A stretch of 58,451 nucleotides of DNA from Candidatus Woesearchaeota archaeon (GCA_047602765.1 JBLKOL010000003.1:1-58451), one strand, 5' to 3'; positions 2,874 to 47,509 are shown, counted from the first letter of the stretch. Notes: generated from the sequence alone by a model not told the origin. Made by a program: numbers and translations.

Positions 2874-3566
2874 CTAGCCGACATAGAACATCTGGTTCTT
2901 CTCAGACATCGACTTAGCGCTCTTCGACTCTTTGAGGATGCGCTTGACGCGTTCTTCGAAGACCTTTGAGAGCTCTCGCAGCGCAGTAGCGTCCATACCC
3001 AGGTCGAACAGGCCGTTGAGCGTTTCGAGCAGTTGAGCGGCAGCCTCAGAATCGGGGATCGACACGTTCGCCTCACTGAAAATACCGACCGTACGATCCG
3101 GATAGCGCGAGAACACCTCAGCGCTCGTACCGAGGACCACACCCTCTTCGAGTCCCTCAGGAAGCGAGAGGCCCTCAGACGCCTTCTCATCCACGACGTA
3201 CGAGAACGTACGATGACCGTCCTCCATCGAACCGATCGATTCGAGAACGACGATACGAGCAGGATCGATATCCTCAATGACCGAAAAGAGTTCGTCGGAT
3301 GTTTCCGAATCGTTCGGCAACGGGATGAGCGCATGGATGTACACGATCGAACGACCTTCATCGAAATACGCCGACACCGGCCAGATCGGACGACCCTCGT
3401 GGATGGCGAGAAACGTCGAGGAGGCATCGTGGAGCGATAGGTGGCCGATCAAACGGGGCTTTGCGTGTTCGATAAGATGCTGAAGCGCGATCGAACCAGC
3501 CATACCGAAGCCAGGGAACCCTATGACGAGCGTCGGATGCTTCTTACCCAAAGAGCCGAGATCCAT
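2874..3566 (-). CDS. PAC2 family (proteasome assembly chaperone-like) protein
   Basis: LVIGFPGFGMAGSIALQHLIE N-terminus, PDSEAAAQLLETL..LF.L.MD...L.E motif, aromatic C-terminal tail QMFYVG. Confidence 0.85.
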   Translation of the reverse strand: MDLGSLGKKHPTLVIGFPGFGMAGSIALQHLIEHAKPRLIGHLSLHDASSTFLAIHEGRPIWPVSAYFDEGRSIVYIHALIPLPNDSETSDELFSVIEDIDPARIVVLESIGSMEDGHRTFSYVVDEKASEGLSLPEGLEEGVVLGTSAEVFSRYPDRTVGIFSEANVSIPDSEAAAQLLETLNGLFDLGMDATALRELSKVFEERVKRILKESKSAKSMSEKNQMFYVG

Positions 3567-3567
3567 C

Positions 3568-4233
3568 TTACTTCTTGCGCTTACGCTTCTTCGGCTTGGA
3601 TCCGATCCAACCCGTGATGAGATCGTGCACCTCGTCTTTCATACCGAAGCCGACCGCGATACCAACCGCCAGCGCAAAGGCGAGGGCGAACCCGAAGAGG
3701 ATGATCAGCAAAGCTTGTTGTATGAGCGCCGTATTCAAACCGACCTGGTCGAGCGCCATGATCGCCCCGAGCACGACAATCGCAACGAAGGCGACCGGAG
3801 CGAGGCGGTGGGCAACACCCTCACCGTGATCGATACGGATCTGGACCCAGCGACCGATCGCATAGAACACCATGAAGATGAGCAGCGCAGCGAGAACGCC
3901 CGGAATCCAGTACAATACGCTCGTGAGCGCACCCGCGATCAGATCCCATCCAAGACGCGTGAGCGCTTCGATCGAGAACGCGAGGATGATCGCGACCTCA
4001 GCGATGTCACCGAGCAGCTCAGAGACCTTGAGCTTACCGAAAATCTCACCGATGTGAAGGCGCGATACGAACTCGTCGAACTTGGCCCTTCTGAGGATGC
4101 CCATGACGATCCCTTTAACCAAGAACCCGAGCGCGATACCGAGCGTGATGAGCAGGAACGCGATAACGACGTTGACCAAGATCTGACTCCCAGCAACCGA
4201 GAGCCAATCCGCAATCCATGAAGCATACGACAT
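3568..4233 (-). CDS. CmpX-like membrane protein with MscS TM_helix repeats
   Basis: Repeated ILRRAKFDEF / YWIPGVLAALLIF segments, AFALAVGIAVGFG motif and basic tail; start reassigned to ATG 4233. Confidence 0.7.
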   Translation of the reverse strand: MSYASWIADWLSVAGSQILVNVVIAFLLITLGIALGFLVKGIVMGILRRAKFDEFVSRLHIGEIFGKLKVSELLGDIAEVAIILAFSIEALTRLGWDLIAGALTSVLYWIPGVLAALLIFMVFYAIGRWVQIRIDHGEGVAHRLAPVAFVAIVVLGAIMALDQVGLNTALIQQALLIILFGFALAFALAVGIAVGFGMKDEVHDLITGWIGSKPKKRKRKK

Positions 4234-4383
4234 TGGCAACCACCCCTTTCCCACGACTTCGTGGTGACTACGATCGTTTGAGACCGAACCGTATATAAAA
4301 TTATCTGAACTGTGGCAGTGAGCACAGCTCAAGATACCTCGCACAGTTCTCACATGAGCGATACGGTGTTAATGAGGCAACTA

Positions 4384-40978: not shown

Positions 40979-41431
40979 TTAGGATGCGGTTCTTATGCGT
41001 TGTGTTCGATACAGATCAGGAGCGATGGGTGTGAGGACGAATCGATGATCCTCGAAACAACCGACCGCCTCAGGAGCGATCCAGTGCAACCCCTGAGGAG
41101 CACGCTCGGCAAGCGCGAAGACGATGGCATCGAGGTCTTCGTTGATGCGCGGGTCGAAGAACCCCGTACTGATGCTCGCATCCCAAGCGCGAGCAGATGT
41201 GAATACGGTGTGAGCATCGGCACGGACGTACCGTGCGCTCCGTGGAGCCACGAGCACAGGCTCCGTATCGACGCCGAGGTACGATTGTGCAGGGCTTGCG
41301 AGCGCTTCACGGGCTAAGCCACCCCACTTACCCGGACCGAGCTCGATCACATGCGCATCGCAACAGAGCGACGCGAGCACTCTGCGTGCGCTCGGGTTGT
41401 TGAGGATCACATACCGGTATTCGACGAACAT
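40979..41431 (-). CDS. Small class I SAM-dependent methyltransferase-like protein
   Basis: IELGPG, GVD and ADA motifs I-III. Confidence 0.6.
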   Translation of the reverse strand: MFVEYRYVILNNPSARRVLASLCCDAHVIELGPGKWGGLAREALASPAQSYLGVDTEPVLVAPRSARYVRADAHTVFTSARAWDASISTGFFDPRINEDLDAIVFALAERAPQGLHWIAPEAVGCFEDHRFVLTPIAPDLYRTQRIRTAS

Positions 41432-41445
41432 AGCGCATCAGGACG

Positions 41446-41519
41446 TGGACTGGCGGGGATTTGAACCCCGGGCCTCACCGCTGCCAGCGGCGCGTTCTAC
41501 CGAGCTGAACTACCAGCCC
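41446..41519 (-). tRNA. tRNA-Ala(GGC)
   Basis: GGGCTGG/CCAGTCC acceptor with G3:U70, CGCCG-CTGGCAG-CGGTG anticodon arm. Confidence 0.97.
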
Positions 41520-41563: not shown

Positions 41564-42760
41564 TCAGCGTGGTGCGAAGAAGGAGCTCGCTTGTTGAGCC
41601 GCAACGCGATTGATGTCCCTGCGACCGTTCTCCGTGGGTTCGAGTTGTTGCGCGATCCAATCGTAGAGTTCGGGGTTCTTATGGATCATCACATAGAGGA
41701 GTCCTAGAGTCTCGTCGTTCGCTTCGGGAGCTCGCTGTGCGAGGTCGACGATCCTGAGTGCATGGTCCCTGGCGTCTTGAAGCGATGAATAGCTCGACAG
41801 GTGTTCGATCAGGGACGAACCTTCTTTCACGTACCACGCGCTGTGCGGACCGACCGAACTGCGTACCTTCTCGATGAACGGTTCGGAAAAGTCCTCGGCA
41901 AAGACGTTTCGAGCGTGGTCCTGTCCGGCTGTATAGGCGAGCAGGAGCGATGCTGCATCCACGTCGAATCCATGGGAGGAGAGATATGCAGCCATATACG
42001 TGATCATCGTGCCTGCTGCGAGCGCGCTCTCGTACGCATCTTCGAGATCGAGGCTTTCAAAATCATCCGGGATTATCGAGGCGAGGGAGAGCATCCGGCG
42101 TGCTCCCGGGGATCCTACGAACGCTCCTTCGAACCGCTCACGTTCTTCCTTCGTTAGAAGAGTATCGTAGTCTCGTATCGTCCTCCAACGGTTCTGTGCG
42201 ATATCAGGCCAGCGTTCGCCGAACTGCCTCTCGAAGTACGAACGCGCTTCACCTGCTTGTTCGAGAACACTGTGAAGACTACCTGGTTTAACATGATGAT
42301 GACCCCGAGGAGCGTTCGGGTCATCAGTCGCATAACCGAACGGCGTGAGGATCCGACCCCCTTCGGACTCGAGGATGCTGATCGTCGCAAGCATCGCAGG
42401 AGGGACGCCCATGACGGCTCCGGCCCGCTCGTAGGCTTCGATGTCGTCTCGGGTGAGGTGTGCGAGCGAAGTTACGGCCTTGAACGAGAGTTCAGGCGAA
42501 AGCTCGGAGGAGGACGCATGCGAACTACTGATGATAGATTCGAGCGTTTCACCCGCCGTACGTTCGGCTTGGCTGATATGTGGAGTGGGAAACGGATCTT
42601 CGCGCTGCTCGACACTTGGAGGTTGTCGGAGGTGTCCGAGCATTCCTTGCGGGATGTGCTCTTGTACGTATCCGTCGATGAACGGCAGGGCGAGGAGTCC
42701 TGAGATTACTCCGGCGATCCCTTTCTGACGCCATGATCCATACGACTTACGAACAGACAT
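41564..42760 (-). CDS. Membrane-anchored lytic transglycosylase (SLT/lysozyme-like) domain protein
   Basis: N-terminal anchor; AG..GVPPAMLATISILES (catalytic Glu), SPGARRMLSL (degenerate motif II), G..YMA.YL and LLAYTAG (AYNAG motif). Confidence 0.7.
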   Translation of the reverse strand: MSVRKSYGSWRQKGIAGVISGLLALPFIDGYVQEHIPQGMLGHLRQPPSVEQREDPFPTPHISQAERTAGETLESIISSSHASSSELSPELSFKAVTSLAHLTRDDIEAYERAGAVMGVPPAMLATISILESEGGRILTPFGYATDDPNAPRGHHHVKPGSLHSVLEQAGEARSYFERQFGERWPDIAQNRWRTIRDYDTLLTKEERERFEGAFVGSPGARRMLSLASIIPDDFESLDLEDAYESALAAGTMITYMAAYLSSHGFDVDAASLLLAYTAGQDHARNVFAEDFSEPFIEKVRSSVGPHSAWYVKEGSSLIEHLSSYSSLQDARDHALRIVDLAQRAPEANDETLGLLYVMIHKNPELYDWIAQQLEPTENGRRDINRVAAQQASSFFAPR

Positions 42761-42852
42761 AATGTTACTACTGCATAGTGAATATATAAGGATTGTGGTG
42801 TTCTCCGTGGTTCAACCGCAACCGTTTAAAAACATCGTTCCTGAGCAGACCC

Positions 42853-43260
42853 ATGGCATCCGTCTTCACCAAGATCATCAACGGCGAACTCCCAGCCCAG
42901 ATACTCTACGAAGACGAGCGGTTCATCGCCATACTCGACATCAACCCCGTGAACCACGGACATGCGCTCGTCATCACCAAAGACGAAGTACCCGACTTCG
43001 AAACGCTTGACCCCGAACTCCTCGGACCGCTCTTTACCACCGTACAACACGTCGCACGCGCAGTCGTCAGAGGAACGAACGCCCAGGGGTTCAACGTCAT
43101 GACGAGCAACGGATCCGCAGCAGGACAGGAGATCGAACACCTCCACGTCCACATCATTCCACGCTTCGAAGGAGACGGATTCACTCACTGGAAGAGCGGG
43201 GCGTACGAAGACTCCGAAGAGATGGAACGCGTCGGAGCAGCCATCAGGAACGCGATCTGA
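42853..43260 (+). CDS. HIT family hydrolase (canonical)
   Basis: VFTKII.GE.PA..LYED, DINP..GH.LVI and HLHVHIIPR motifs. Confidence 0.95.
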   Translation: MASVFTKIINGELPAQILYEDERFIAILDINPVNHGHALVITKDEVPDFETLDPELLGPLFTTVQHVARAVVRGTNAQGFNVMTSNGSAAGQEIEHLHVHIIPRFEGDGFTHWKSGAYEDSEEMERVGAAIRNAI

Positions 43261-46200
43261 AGACCATCGCCACAGCGAGCATCGCACCAACGAAGAGGGC
43301 GAGCATCACCGGGAGCTCCATGCGAGGACTCATCGATACTTCCTCGAGCGAATCGTCCACAGGAACGGGGTCCGTCGGCTCGATGTAGATCGAACGATCC
43401 CCCACCAGCACCTCTTCAGGAGCCGACTCAACAGGATCATCACGACCAGATTCGAGTTGTGATCGGACCTCTTCTTCAGGCAGGGCCTCGGGCTCTTCGA
43501 CCTCAGCCGGCACAGGACGGAACGAACCACCAGACCTACCGGAGCCTCCTCGTGACCGCGCAGGAGAATCAGGTTCAGAAGCTGCTTCAACCACCTCTAC
43601 AGAGACGGTGAGAACCACTTCATTCCCGAGCAGATCGAACACCGCATACGACCCCTCATCAGCATGAGCGAGGATTACCGACGTGTTCAGAGAACTGTTG
43701 AACCCGAGACCGGGAATCGTGATCGGTGTGAGATCCTCGAACAAAATCGTAACCTGCGAAGGATCATCGCTGCCGAGCGTTATGGGAACCATGCGAGGAG
43801 GCTTCGTATCGACGAGCACACCGGTCGGTTGATCGATACCCACGCGATTACCCGCATGGTCCTCAAGCTCGAATACGAGCAGAACATCTTCGGATTCGAA
43901 TCCAGAAACTGCCGTGCAGAGAACCTCCCACACAGAACCGGTACCTGAGACTTCACAATCGAGCGCTTCTGAAGACACGTTCGCTGATGCGAGTTCCTCA
44001 GAAGCCTCGAATACGAAGGTAACCGAGCCGTTCACACCGAGCACCGACGCATTCGAATCGAACGAGACGATCCAAGGAACAACCGCATCCAAACGAACCG
44101 ATGGGAGCACAGCCCGATTCCCCGCACGATCAGAGAGGTCGTGGAGGAGGACGAGTGACTCGTCGAAACTCGCATTCGAAGACGCATACTCGACAAAGAG
44201 CGTACGATCATCGAGCCAGGACGATGTTGCAACGACGAGAGCCTCATCGGGAAACACCAAGAAGTTGCGATGCGTATCCATATCCTTATCGAAGACGATA
44301 TCGAATGAACCAAACGCAGAAAGAAGAGAAGGAAGAGAACCGACGGGAGGCGTGGTATCGACCGATACGCCCGTATCGATAGCAACAGTAGCACTGTTTC
44401 CCGCAATATCTTCGAGTACTATGGTGAGCAGCGCGTCTTGCGTATCTGCACCAGACACAGCTGAACACATAATCTCTCCATCCAAGCCCTCAACAGACGA
44501 ATCACATATGAGTTCGTCAGAAGAAGCGTCCACCGATGCGAGTTCCTCAGAAGACACGAACGAGAACGCAACCGAGCCGTTCACACCGAGCACCGACGCA
44601 TTCGAATCGAACGAGACGATCCAAGGAACAACCGCATCCAAACGAACCGATGGGAGCACAGCCCGATTCCCCGCACGATCAGAGAGGTCGTGGAGGAGGA
44701 CGAGTGACTCGTCGAAACTCGCATTCGAAGACGCATACTCGACAAAGAGCGTACGATCATCGAGCCACGAAACGTTAGAAGACACCAGAGCAGCATCAGG
44801 GAACACAACCGAAGACAACGCAGTATCCATATCCTTATCGAAGACGATAGCGAACGAACCAAACGCAGAAAGAAGAGAAGGAAGAGAACCGACAGGCACC
44901 GAGGCGTCAACAGATACTCCGGTTCCGATATCCTCTTGATTCGTGTTCCCAGCAACATCCTCAAGCACGAGCGAGAGCACAGCATTCTCAGACACCGCAT
45001 CCTGGAGCGCCACGCACACCACCTCACCAGCGAGACCACTCAGTGAAATCGTGCAGTCGAGCGCGTCTGAAAACACGTTCACCGATGCGAGTTCCTCAGA
45101 AGCCTCGAATACGAAGCCTACCGAGCCGTTCACACCGAGCACCGACGCATTCGAATCGAACGAGACGATTGTAGGAACAACCGCATCCAAACGAACCGAG
45201 GGAATCAGGGCAGGATTGCCAGCACGGTCAGCCGCATCATGATCGAGGAGTACCACGTCATCGAAACTTGCGTTCGCAGCACTATACATGACCATGAGCG
45301 TGCGATCATCGAGCCAGGACGTCGTCGCATCGACAAGCGCAGCATCAGGAAACGAAACCGTAGCTAGAGCTGTATCCATGGGCTCGTCGAACACGATCTC
45401 GAACGAGCCGGCAGCGGGAATCACGTCAGCAAGCGTTCCTTGAGGGGGAATCGTATCGAACGAGTACTCGTTCCACACTTCGATAGTGCGGTCACCGAAA
45501 GACGCAGAGACGGTTTCGATGGATCCCCCATCGCTCGGACCGTTCACGGTACGGTTGAACACATAATACCCATCCGAGCGCGGAACTTCGATCACGAGCG
45601 AATCAGACTCCGCTTGCGCTTCGATCGAAACCGTGATCAACTCAGGAGCGTAAGAGAAGATCTCGATCCGAGCCTCGTACTCACCGGCTGGGAGCAGGGT
45701 TCGATCGGTATCGTACGTTATGCGAGCATCCGCAAGCTTGAACAACTGCTCTTCGGTCTTCGAAACTCCGAAGTCGGTATCGAGATAGGCGAAGAAGACG
45801 TACGCTCCCGAAGGACCCTCGCCGATCACCGTCCAGTTGAGCGAACACGAGTCACCATCATCGAGCGCGCACGACTGGGGATTATCAGAAGATGTCCAGA
45901 AGGGACGAGCACCAGGAGTCGTCGGCACCACACCCTTGCGCGATGCAGGATCATCGAGATGAAGCGAAGGATACGAGCGAAGCGACGAGTCACTGACCGA
46001 ACCTGACGCTGAGAGCATGAGTCTGAGCGCTTCAGGAGCGAGCGTACGCGCATAGCGTTCCTCCCAGAATCCTGAGAGAAGAAGCGCAGAACCAGCACCG
46101 TGAGGAGCGGCCATCGACGTACCGCTGCGGGCGAGGAACGCGCCATCCTTGTCAGAAGACGTGATGAATATCCCCGGAGCGAAAAGAACCCCGGTGTCCC

Positions 46201-47509
46201 GCGCGCTAAGCGATGCGATATTCGCACCATCAAGGGCACCCACCGCCACCGCGTGAGGAGCACAGGCCGGAGATGAGACTCCCAGATACGGTTGGTGTTG
46301 ATTGTAGTAGTTCCCTGCAGCAGCGAACACCGCGATGCCAGCCTCATGTGCGTTGGCGACCGCCTGCGCTTCAGGTAGGATATCGCACGAACCATGGTAG
46401 ACGCGATTCGTACCCAGGCTCATGACGATGGCTCTGATGTCGTAGACATCGCGCATCTGAGTACAGTATTCTATTCCTTCGATGACTTGATCGATCGAAC
46501 CCCTCCCACGGTTATCGAGCACGCGGACCGCGACGATCGAAACAGAAGGTGCGACACCGCGATACTGAGCGTCGCGAGAAGCGACGATACCCGCAACGTG
46601 CGTACCGTGTCCGTATCCGTCGAACGGATCAGCATCGTCATCGACGAAATCGTATCCTCCGATAACCACGTCGCACGAAGCATCATTGATATCGCTCGTG
46701 CGCGCACACCCCCCCAAAGCAGGATGCGTATAGTCGACGCCCGAATCGATCACACACACCGACCCTGAACCGAACGACTCAGACCAATAGGCCGACGTAC
46801 CGATCGATGCTACCGATTCGTCGAGCATCGCGAACACTTCGAGATTCGCGAACACCGCCACAGAAGGTTCACGAGGTGCGGAACGTCCGATACGATCCCG
46901 TACCTGTTCAGGAACAGAGCGAAGAGAACTCACACGGTCAAGCGCCTCACGCACACGCGTCACCTCGCGACCCTCATCGCTCACGACGATCACCATATCA
47001 TCATCATCGAGCGAGCGCACCTGCGGGTCGATGTACGGATCGAGCGTTACGATCACCTCACCGCACGGGCCTCCGTCGCACGAGACGTTAACGTACGCCT
47101 CGAACGTAGAACCGAGCGGACCCTCGGAGCGATTCAACGAGAAGTTCGAAGAGAGCACGCCGCGCTCGACAAGCTTGATGGTGTACGGTCCAGACGTATC
47201 ACCCTCGACGCGAGCCGTGAGCGTCTCGGAACGACCCGCACTCCACCTCGCATACGCATCCGTCGTGAACGAGCGTCGATCACGATCAGACCTGATGAAC
47301 ACGTTCGAGCCGCGCAGCACCGAGAGTTCGACATCCACCGAATCGCTCGAAACGAACAGTTCGTAGTCTCGCCCCTCCACCACTTCAAACGGATGCAGAG
47401 CGCTCGAACCATCCAACTCCCCCGAGATCTCGATTCCGGACTCGAGCGCCGAGACTGCACTGACGAACACGGCGAAGAGCACGAAGAGGATACCGAAGCG
47501 CATCATCAC
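43244..47509 (-). CDS. Cell-surface subtilisin-like S8 protease with Ig-like repeats and C-terminal TM anchor
   Basis: Signal peptide, VIDSG / HGTHVAG / SGTSMAAPH triad, D.AGN repeats, C-terminal TM. Confidence 0.93.
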   Translation of the reverse strand: MMMRFGILFVLFAVFVSAVSALESGIEISGELDGSSALHPFEVVEGRDYELFVSSDSVDVELSVLRGSNVFIRSDRDRRSFTTDAYARWSAGRSETLTARVEGDTSGPYTIKLVERGVLSSNFSLNRSEGPLGSTFEAYVNVSCDGGPCGEVIVTLDPYIDPQVRSLDDDDMVIVVSDEGREVTRVREALDRVSSLRSVPEQVRDRIGRSAPREPSVAVFANLEVFAMLDESVASIGTSAYWSESFGSGSVCVIDSGVDYTHPALGGCARTSDINDASCDVVIGGYDFVDDDADPFDGYGHGTHVAGIVASRDAQYRGVAPSVSIVAVRVLDNRGRGSIDQVIEGIEYCTQMRDVYDIRAIVMSLGTNRVYHGSCDILPEAQAVANAHEAGIAVFAAAGNYYNQHQPYLGVSSPACAPHAVAVGALDGANIASLSARDTGVLFAPGIFITSSDKDGAFLARSGTSMAAPHGAGSALLLSGFWEERYARTLAPEALRLMLSASGSVSDSSLRSYPSLHLDDPASRKGVVPTTPGARPFWTSSDNPQSCALDDGDSCSLNWTVIGEGPSGAYVFFAYLDTDFGVSKTEEQLFKLADARITYDTDRTLLPAGEYEARIEIFSYAPELITVSIEAQAESDSLVIEVPRSDGYYVFNRTVNGPSDGGSIETVSASFGDRTIEVWNEYSFDTIPPQGTLADVIPAAGSFEIVFDEPMDTALATVSFPDAALVDATTSWLDDRTLMVMYSAANASFDDVVLLDHDAADRAGNPALIPSVRLDAVVPTIVSFDSNASVLGVNGSVGFVFEASEELASVNVFSDALDCTISLSGLAGEVVCVALQDAVSENAVLSLVLEDVAGNTNQEDIGTGVSVDASVPVGSLPSLLSAFGSFAIVFDKDMDTALSSVVFPDAALVSSNVSWLDDRTLFVEYASSNASFDESLVLLHDLSDRAGNRAVLPSVRLDAVVPWIVSFDSNASVLGVNGSVAFSFVSSEELASVDASSDELICDSSVEGLDGEIMCSAVSGADTQDALLTIVLEDIAGNSATVAIDTGVSVDTTPPVGSLPSLLSAFGSFDIVFDKDMDTHRNFLVFPDEALVVATSSWLDDRTLFVEYASSNASFDESLVLLHDLSDRAGNRAVLPSVRLDAVVPWIVSFDSNASVLGVNGSVTFVFEASEELASANVSSEALDCEVSGTGSVWEVLCTAVSGFESEDVLLVFELEDHAGNRVGIDQPTGVLVDTKPPRMVPITLGSDDPSQVTILFEDLTPITIPGLGFNSSLNTSVILAHADEGSYAVFDLLGNEVVLTVSVEVVEAASEPDSPARSRGGSGRSGGSFRPVPAEVEEPEALPEEEVRSQLESGRDDPVESAPEEVLVGDRSIYIEPTDPVPVDDSLEEVSMSPRMELPVMLALFVGAMLAVAMVFRSRS
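43811..45457 (-). repeat. Three tandem 549-bp (183-aa) repeats in the S8 protease
   Basis: Unit-start Asp codons at 45457, 44908, 44359 and 43810 (exact 549 spacing); 44021-44218 is identical to 44570-44767. Confidence 0.92.

Follow-up and report, generated by a model that had tools for sequence, protein, structure and literature searches.

A membrane-anchored, strongly diverged lytic-transglycosylase-like protein in a Woesearchaeota genome

Proteins related to lytic transglycosylases have already been described in archaea with small genomes. Murein-like lytic transglycosylases of Woesearchaeota and Pacearchaeota were proposed to act against bacterial walls (Castelle et al. 2021, PMC8204110, citing Rinke 2013 and Castelle 2015), the same bacterial-wall use was proposed for the GH23 genes of DPANN archaea (Vigneron et al. 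2022, PMC9723730), and peptidoglycan hydrolases of other archaea are reported to kill bacteria (PMC12352652, which also cites the Woesearchaeota genes). Here we analyze a gene found in a stretch of 58,451 nucleotides from Candidatus Woesearchaeota archaeon (GCA_047602765.1, JBLKOL010000003.1:1-58451; the window), belonging to a genome of 0.96 Mb in 50 contigs, 69% complete, from a very large archaeal order with genomes of 0.6-2.7 Mb. The gene occupies positions 41564..42760 on the minus strand, stop codon included, as do all the features of the gene given below, and from the list of open reading frames (ORFs) and its translation it encodes a protein of 398 amino acids, named P0001. The gene is real, and its product is a membrane-anchored, divergent SLT-like protein. 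SLTs of archaea, and their possible action on bacterial walls, are known, and P0001 is a new, hard-to-recognize protein of this kind; its own particularities are a divergence beyond the curated models, the change of a motif Gln to His and a fixed genomic slot.

Fold and motifs of P0001

The relatives of P0001 are few. Out of 1.84 billion representative proteins searched exhaustively with phmmer, only five were returned, with E-values from 4e-67 to 3e-22 and identities of 29-43% by phmmer (26-42% pairwise in the alignment), and a word-indexed homologue search, both with the sequence and with a profile, gave only P0001 itself and one known member. P0001 itself was not found in 60 related genomes. 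The five relatives and P0001 form the six-member family alignment that we call A1.

Because single-sequence searches were silent, the case for an SLT relationship rests on the convergence of weak lines, which lead us to consider an SLT/GEWL (lysozyme-like) fold of P0001 as very probable. When the A1 profile was compared with the PDB sequences, the five best matches all fell on the catalytic-Glu motif of E. coli MltE/EmtA, with E-values of 0.19-0.28. A hidden Markov model (HMM) built from A1 gave a single weak match over around 300 genomes of the order (E 2.5e-4 per genome), and the protein matched, from genome G038, passes the Pfam SLT threshold with 26 bits versus 21.3. This protein belongs to a group of long-insert SLTs (from G003, G033, G038 and G155), all of them anchored and Pfam-positive, in which motif I and motif III are separated by around 140 residues, as they are in P0001.

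Profile-profile comparison with hhalign aligned A1 to 25 SLT domains of the order with a P value of 0.0012, in a co-linear way over residues 102-288, in such a way that the ES, NI.AG..Y and AAYNAG segments of the SLT domains were paired with ES, ALAAGTMITY and LAYTAG, respectively. The score was 29.2, versus 11.5 ± 2.2 (maximum 19.7) for column-shuffled SLT profiles and 11.7 ± 2.0 (maximum 18.4) for shuffled query profiles; none of the 150 shuffles reached 29.2 in either direction, and the reversed SLT profile gave 16.9. As the score lies around 8 standard deviations above the shuffle null, the motif matches are beyond chance. In addition, the profile phrog_4067, annotated as "transglycosylase", matches two of the six family members (best E-value 1.8e-4) and, weakly, residues 238-322 of P0001.

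A structure model was generated with AlphaFold (AF2) from a multiple sequence alignment (MSA) of 10 sequences, with a mean predicted local distance difference test score (pLDDT) of 75.6 and a predicted template modelling score (pTM) of 0.71. The model is all-helical and would place P0001 within the SLT/GEWL fold. The lysozyme-like fold that the first-pass annotation had proposed to look for with Foldseek was indeed what this search pointed to, since MltE accounted for the top 13 PDB matches of the model, with probabilities up to 1.00, target template modelling (TM) scores of 0.39-0.55 and E-values of at least 0.09. The following ranks were occupied by g-type lysozymes, MltF and MltC, and the top match in the viral database BFVD was a GEWL-like protein.

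The putative catalytic residue lies in motif I, SILESEG (residues 128-134; 42359..42379), where the family profile aligns to the catalytic-Glu motif of MltE/EmtA. Glu131, the putative general acid, ends the modelled helix 121-131 and is followed by Ser in five of the six members and by Thr in the other, and the pair E131-S132 aligns to the invariant E-S of the 25 SLT domains of the order. The ILES sequence (129-132) had already been read as motif I from the sequence, and E131 is invariant not only in the six members, but also in four Pfam-positive relatives. The same is true for motif III, LLAYTAG (273-279; 41924..41944), previously recognized as LAYTAG (274-279), which is the equivalent of AYNxG and was aligned by hhalign to the AAYNAG of the SLT domains; it reads A-Y-T-A-G at 275-279, with Thr or Val in place of the Asn of AYNxG and with Y276 and G279 invariant. 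A motif IV-like sequence, AWYV (308-311; 41828..41839), contains the W309 and Y310 invariant in A1, followed by V311, to be compared with the ET..YV tail of the SLT domains of the order. Invariant positions in A1 include E131, G134, P151, G153, L162, Y276, G279, W309 and Y310, among others, and E131, Y276, G279 and Y310 stay so in a 10-sequence joint alignment with the four Pfam-positive SLTs.

Motif II required re-assignment. The first-pass annotation took SPGARRML (217-224) for a degenerate motif II, an assignment that we abandon: only R222 is conserved in it, G219 varies, and the sequence lies 85 residues past the catalytic Glu, within an insertion. The hhalign alignment would instead place motif II at PRGHHHVKPGSL (151-162; 42275..42310), opposite to GA.GLMQLMP.T, with GA.GLMQLMP facing PRGHHHVKP (151-159) and with G153 and P159 kept. 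The family consensus for this segment is P151-x-G153-x-x-H156-V-x-P159-x-x-L162, in which the canonical Gln is replaced by His156 in five of the six members and by Ala in the remaining one; V157 and P159 are each present in five of six. The pLDDT is low over residues 144-155, corresponding to the motif II loop. Between this motif and the helix preceding motif III, the hhalign gap defines a helical insertion of around 78 residues (163-240; 42041..42274) that holds SPGARRML and the invariant W192, R222 and L226, with helices modelled over residues 159-229. Pfam-positive SLTs of the order carry an insertion comparable to this one.

These motifs are part of a putative SLT/GEWL-like catalytic core (residues 89-322; 41795..42496) that is supported by hhalign, Foldseek and phrog_4067. 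Ahead of it, the protein starts with a predicted signal-anchor or transmembrane helix (residues 11-35; 42656..42730), modelled by AF2 as a helix over these same residues, whose hydrophobic core at residues 14-32 has a Kyte-Doolittle value of 1.63 over 19 residues and is preceded by basic residues. This anchor, also noticed in the first reading of the sequence, is present in every member of the six-member family. Anchor and core are connected by a low-confidence linker, probably disordered (residues 36-88; 42497..42655), poorly conserved and variable in length, with pLDDT values below 50 at residues 44-70 and 79-84. After the core, the alignments reveal a family-specific C-terminal helical extension (residues 323-398; 41567..41794), with helices modelled over 327-395 and pLDDT values around 82-94 for most of residues 323-390, dropping to around 62 at the C-terminal tail. 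The extension gave no family match, and it is missing from the Pfam-positive relatives.

Several results weigh against the assignment to the SLTs. Searches of P0001 as a single sequence against Pfam, NCBIfam and PDB produced no matches even at an E-value of 10, and none of the six family members matched Pfam at this same value, so that all of them stay below the gathering score of the curated SLT model PF01464. The match to the G038 protein corresponds to an expectation of around 0.075 over the approximately 300 genomes searched, and the hhalign comparisons of A1 with single SLT proteins (the syntenic copy of G003 and the protein encoded by contig C47 of the same genome) were not significant. 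In a search with an order-derived SLT HMM, P0001 was third of the 871 ORFs of its own genome, with a non-significant E-value of 0.54. Regarding the structure, the Foldseek E-values are those mentioned above, the four true SLTs present in the folding MSA may have pulled the model toward the SLT fold, and the AlphaFold model from the single sequence (pLDDT 40) was unusable. P0001 shares around 14-15% identity with the Pfam-positive relatives, over a domain of around 120 alignable columns, which is too little for an informative phylogeny with bacterial and CPR SLTs.

These silent searches and high Foldseek E-values, and the fact that every single bridge is statistically modest, are what would be expected if P0001 were a lineage-specific, helical, anchored protein unrelated to SLTs, its motif likeness being due to chance and its model biased by the SLT sequences in the alignment. 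We regard this explanation as decidedly improbable, having in mind that four independent libraries or methods agree on the family, on the residues and on their order, that the shuffle-calibrated hhalign score is so far above its null, that the invariant residues of the family are precisely the SLT hallmark residues, and that a true SLT occupies the syntenic slot in a sister genus. Membership of P0001 in family 1 of the lytic transglycosylases (SLT/GH23) is probable, and formally unproven because the gathering score is not reached and the equivalence of motif II rests on a low-confidence loop.

Activity and candidate substrates

For P0001 as a whole, we give about even chances to a membrane-tethered, extracytoplasmic and strongly diverged family-1 lytic transglycosylase for which murein is the most likely substrate; catalytic activity, topology and, above all, substrate are what we infer here. 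According to this proposal, the anchor and the flexible linker of around 50 residues would keep the catalytic lobe, which is helical, on the outer side of the membrane, where Glu131, located where the ILES helix ends, would act as general acid/base on a beta-1,4-linked N-acetyl-hexosamine glycan bound in a groove. The groove would be lined by the altered motif II (G153...H156-V-x-P159), by Tyr276 and Gly279 of AYTAG, and by Trp309 and Tyr310. The most likely substrate would be the N-acetylmuramic acid-N-acetylglucosamine (MurNAc-GlcNAc) backbone of bacterial peptidoglycan, which the cell could encounter in wall debris or on bacteria that are its neighbours or hosts.

A degenerate motif II and an extreme sequence drift could also correspond to a dead or very weak SLT-fold glycan binder, that is, an adhesin that attaches to bacterial walls or wall fragments and does not cut them, a role for which a membrane tether and a long linker would be suitable. 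Such a protein seems rather improbable to us. Glu131 is invariant in six members that share only 26-42% identity, both tandem paralogues of the family included, which favours a working general acid over a dead binder and would not be expected after a loss of catalysis; Ser/Thr132, Y276 and Y310 are kept as well.

The evidence for murein as the substrate comes from the rest of the genome, which encodes a second SLT and an M23-SLT protein and in which no Mur ligase or SEDS genes were found, at 69% completeness. Both of these proteins are encoded outside the window. The frequency of SLT domains in the order (95 of 151 genomes) and the published hypothesis point the same way. The second SLT is also membrane-anchored (C47:12320-13723, plus strand; 467 amino acids) and matches Pfam with 24.5 bits. 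It carries a long Pro/Thr/Glu-rich linker ahead of the domain, and inspection by eye showed no obvious AYNxG motif. The other protein (C23:29069-32614, plus strand; 1,181 amino acids) has a multi-pass membrane N-terminus and a Peptidase_M23 domain (E 3e-18), and looks, from its sequence, as if two murein-hydrolysing enzymes were combined on one membrane carrier. Its C-terminus is SLT-like (QENRF...GMMQIQ...GYNGWG) and was not called by Pfam. An autolysin acting on murein of the archaeon's own was also considered, and it was rejected on the basis of the lack of Mur ligase and SEDS genes, which is itself weak evidence because the genome is incomplete. The bacterial host or prey postulated by the first-pass annotation is plausible in view of the M23-SLT fusion and of these missing genes; the bacterial-wall hypothesis, for P0001 a candidate explanation, had been published before for this type of archaea.

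Other data speak for a different glycan: the altered motif II, the insertion and C-terminal extension, and the housekeeping neighbourhood of the gene. The replacement of the motif II Gln may mean a changed substrate or a changed binding of the canonical one. It is possible, though not probable, that an SLT-derived fold with an active Glu was repurposed for a non-murein glycan, candidates being a polysaccharide or glycoprotein glycan of the own envelope (as housekeeping remodelling), a chitin-like polymer, or the wall of an archaeal host. Besides the loss of the Gln (His in five of six, Ala in one) and the family-specific additions of around 78 and 75 residues, such repurposing would fit with a gene that is single-copy and vertically inherited amid translation and housekeeping genes, outside any pilus or "weapon" locus, in a genome where the more canonical SLT and the M23-SLT fusion could cover murein. 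Enzymes with the GH23/GEWL fold also accept chitin oligomers, judging from the titles of PDB entries for MltE with chitopentaose and for the cod g-type lysozyme with N-acetylglucosamine oligomers. On the other side, no candidate alternative polymer was identified in the genome, the remaining SLT hallmark residues are all kept, and the relative that occupies the same slot in G003 has a fully canonical motif II.

In a more specific form of this idea, the enzyme would have left murein and become fixed in a slot near GluRS, with an envelope glycan of its own cell, or a glycan of an archaeal partner, as the substrate, after exchanging the sugar-binding Gln for His and gaining the extra helical lobe and the C-terminal extension. 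We consider this unlikely; if true, it would be the first instance of a lytic transglycosylase fold of bacterial type being domesticated into the envelope biology of archaea.

Genomic setting of the gene

The P0001 gene is native and vertically inherited, because its relatives share one slot on archaeal contigs. Wherever the contig extends far enough, the core order on these contigs is HIT, the gene, an FeS-assembly gene and GluRS; genes for L7Ae, S28e, L24e, NDK and EF2 are found beyond GluRS, and exosome subunits, SBDS and proteasome alpha on the other flank. This order is present in independent metagenome contigs of 31.6 kb and 33 kb with archaeal core genes, and the window itself contains EF2 and an archaeal-type GluRS, in such a way that the archaeal, DPANN-sized origin advanced from the sequence is confirmed by synteny in independent archaeal assemblies. 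The GC content around the gene (0.56-0.58) is close to the genome mean of 0.566. We rejected an assembly chimera, as independent assemblies give identical gene order, and also a salt-in halophile or nanohaloarchaeon, given a median isoelectric point of 5.9 and a (D+E)/(K+R) ratio of 1.15.

The family has undergone tandem duplication in one case, L005/L007 (ENA ERZ23510489 NODE_690), with genes at L007 6700-7932 and 8001-9077. The products, P0006 and P0004, have 410 and 358 amino acids, and both keep the Glu, the motif III and the WYV residues; P0004, the short paralogue, is devoid of the C-terminal extension. In the sister genus represented by G003, the HIT-to-GluRS slot is occupied by a Pfam-positive SLT of 388 amino acids with a twin-arginine-type signal, RRDFLIK. 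The slot is not universally conserved, because L045 (G002:C25), from another genus of the same taxonomic family, carries a different gene arrangement. There, no FeS-assembly or HIT gene was found at the GluRS-adjacent site, and a 385-residue exported protein is encoded beside GluRS (3082-4239, minus strand).

Upstream of P0001, the region 42761-42852 leaves around 92 bp between two divergent genes and contains two TATA-like boxes, each around 22-29 nt ahead of the respective start codon. The one assigned to P0001, TTATATAT (42782..42789), was read from the sequence as an archaeal TATA-like box at -29 to -22 from the ATG, and it is mirrored by TTTAAA, which precedes an internal ATG (around 42853) of the divergent HIT gene. 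This ATG is probably the true start of HIT, the listed TTG start (42793) being wrong. The position of TTATATAT suggests a leaderless or near-leaderless mRNA for P0001, and the pair of boxes suggests leaderless transcripts for both genes. No sigma-70-type (bacterial) promoter was found upstream of P0001. This layout of two divergent, near-leaderless archaeal genes without a bacterial-type promoter supports the annotated start of P0001.

Downstream, a tRNA-Ala(GGC) gene (41445-41519) lies on the same strand as P0001, 44 nt past its stop codon. The adjacency to this tRNA pointed out by the first-pass annotation is thus correct, and it goes with no sign of an island or of integration; a recent horizontal acquisition or a tRNA-linked island was rejected, since the GC content is typical and the gene order is conserved. 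Past the tRNA follow a 150-codon ORF, the FeS-assembly gene (PF01883) and the archaeal-type GluRS. The product of the 150-codon ORF (40979-41431, minus strand) gave no Pfam matches, and the syntenic contig L002 has no counterpart of it; this ORF may be lineage-specific, or may not be a gene. Also in the window, at 43244-47509 on the minus strand, there is a gene for a surface protein of 1,421 amino acids. This protein combines a signal or anchor with a subtilase domain (Peptidase_S8, E 2e-33), a repeat of around 190 amino acids in three near-identical copies, and a transmembrane helix at the C-terminus. As the HIT gene stands between its gene and that of P0001, the two are probably not transcribed together.

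SLT domains in the order and comparison with known systems

The SLT-like fold advanced in the first reading of the sequence is supported, but to call an SLT in an archaeon surprising would be an overstatement: Pfam-significant SLT domains are present in 95 of the 151 genomes of the order that were sampled, often several per genome. Many of these proteins give split Pfam matches, with model positions around 2-57 and around 50-105 lying apart, which indicates that DPANN SLTs commonly have an insertion between motif II and motif III; domains of this type may be truncated or overlooked by standard annotation. Only synteny, profile-profile comparison and the MSA-based model brought the family of P0001 to light. 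With a whole small family missed by sequence searches of Pfam, NCBIfam and PDB, the number of murein-type hydrolases in DPANN archaea is underestimated by standard annotation. If P0001 cuts bacterial peptidoglycan, it would be one more tool, constitutively placed, for the archaeon-on-bacterium lifestyle that has been proposed; if the change in motif II means that the substrate is new, the small size and tractability of P0001 would make it suitable for studying the role of an SLT fold in a murein-free organism. Either outcome leaves current views standing, the general phenomenon having been published.

Among characterized enzymes, E. coli MltE (EmtA; PDB 2y8p, 3t36, 4hjv and 6ghy) is the best match of P0001 by sequence profile and by fold. 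Both would be single-domain, membrane-tethered, extracytoplasmic proteins, the topology of P0001 being a predicted one, and both have the E-S motif with the catalytic Glu, an AYNxG-type motif and a C-terminal Tyr motif. MltE is a lipoprotein of around 200 amino acids with a canonical GLMQ and an endo-type family-1 lytic transglycosylase, whereas P0001 has 398 amino acids, a transmembrane or signal anchor, a probably disordered linker, the insertion of around 78 residues after motif II, the C-terminal helical extension of around 75 residues and a motif II with His instead of Gln, and it goes undetected by the Pfam SLT model.

The long-insert SLTs of the order (388 amino acids in G003, 327 in G038, 360 in G155 and 378 in G033) belong to the size class of P0001 and share with it an N-terminal signal or anchor and around 100 residues ahead of motif I. 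In contrast to P0001, their motif II is the canonical AGAxGxxQ, they score above the Pfam SLT threshold, and they have no C-terminal extension.

The murein-like lytic transglycosylase proteins of DPANN archaea (fam00969, PMC8204110) and the DPANN GH23 genes (PMC9723730) resemble P0001 in that an SLT-type domain, a probable one in P0001, is part of a surface or exported protein and the DPANN archaeon encoding it has a small genome, and they share a proposed role in binding or degrading the bacterial wall. They are large proteins of up to around 3,000 amino acids that can be annotated with standard models, whereas P0001, unlike the large multidomain fam00969 proteins, is small (398 amino acids), single-domain and invisible to Pfam, and its gene lies in a conserved housekeeping neighbourhood.

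Finally, the goose-type lysozymes (GEWL; PDB 3gxk and 3mgw) and the phage GEWL-like/transglycosylase proteins (phrog_4067) share the lysozyme-like helical fold and gave weaker matches to P0001. GEWLs are hydrolases with additional acidic residues; for P0001, the sequence and the model are compatible both with hydrolysis and with the formation of 1,6-anhydro products, and do not separate the two.

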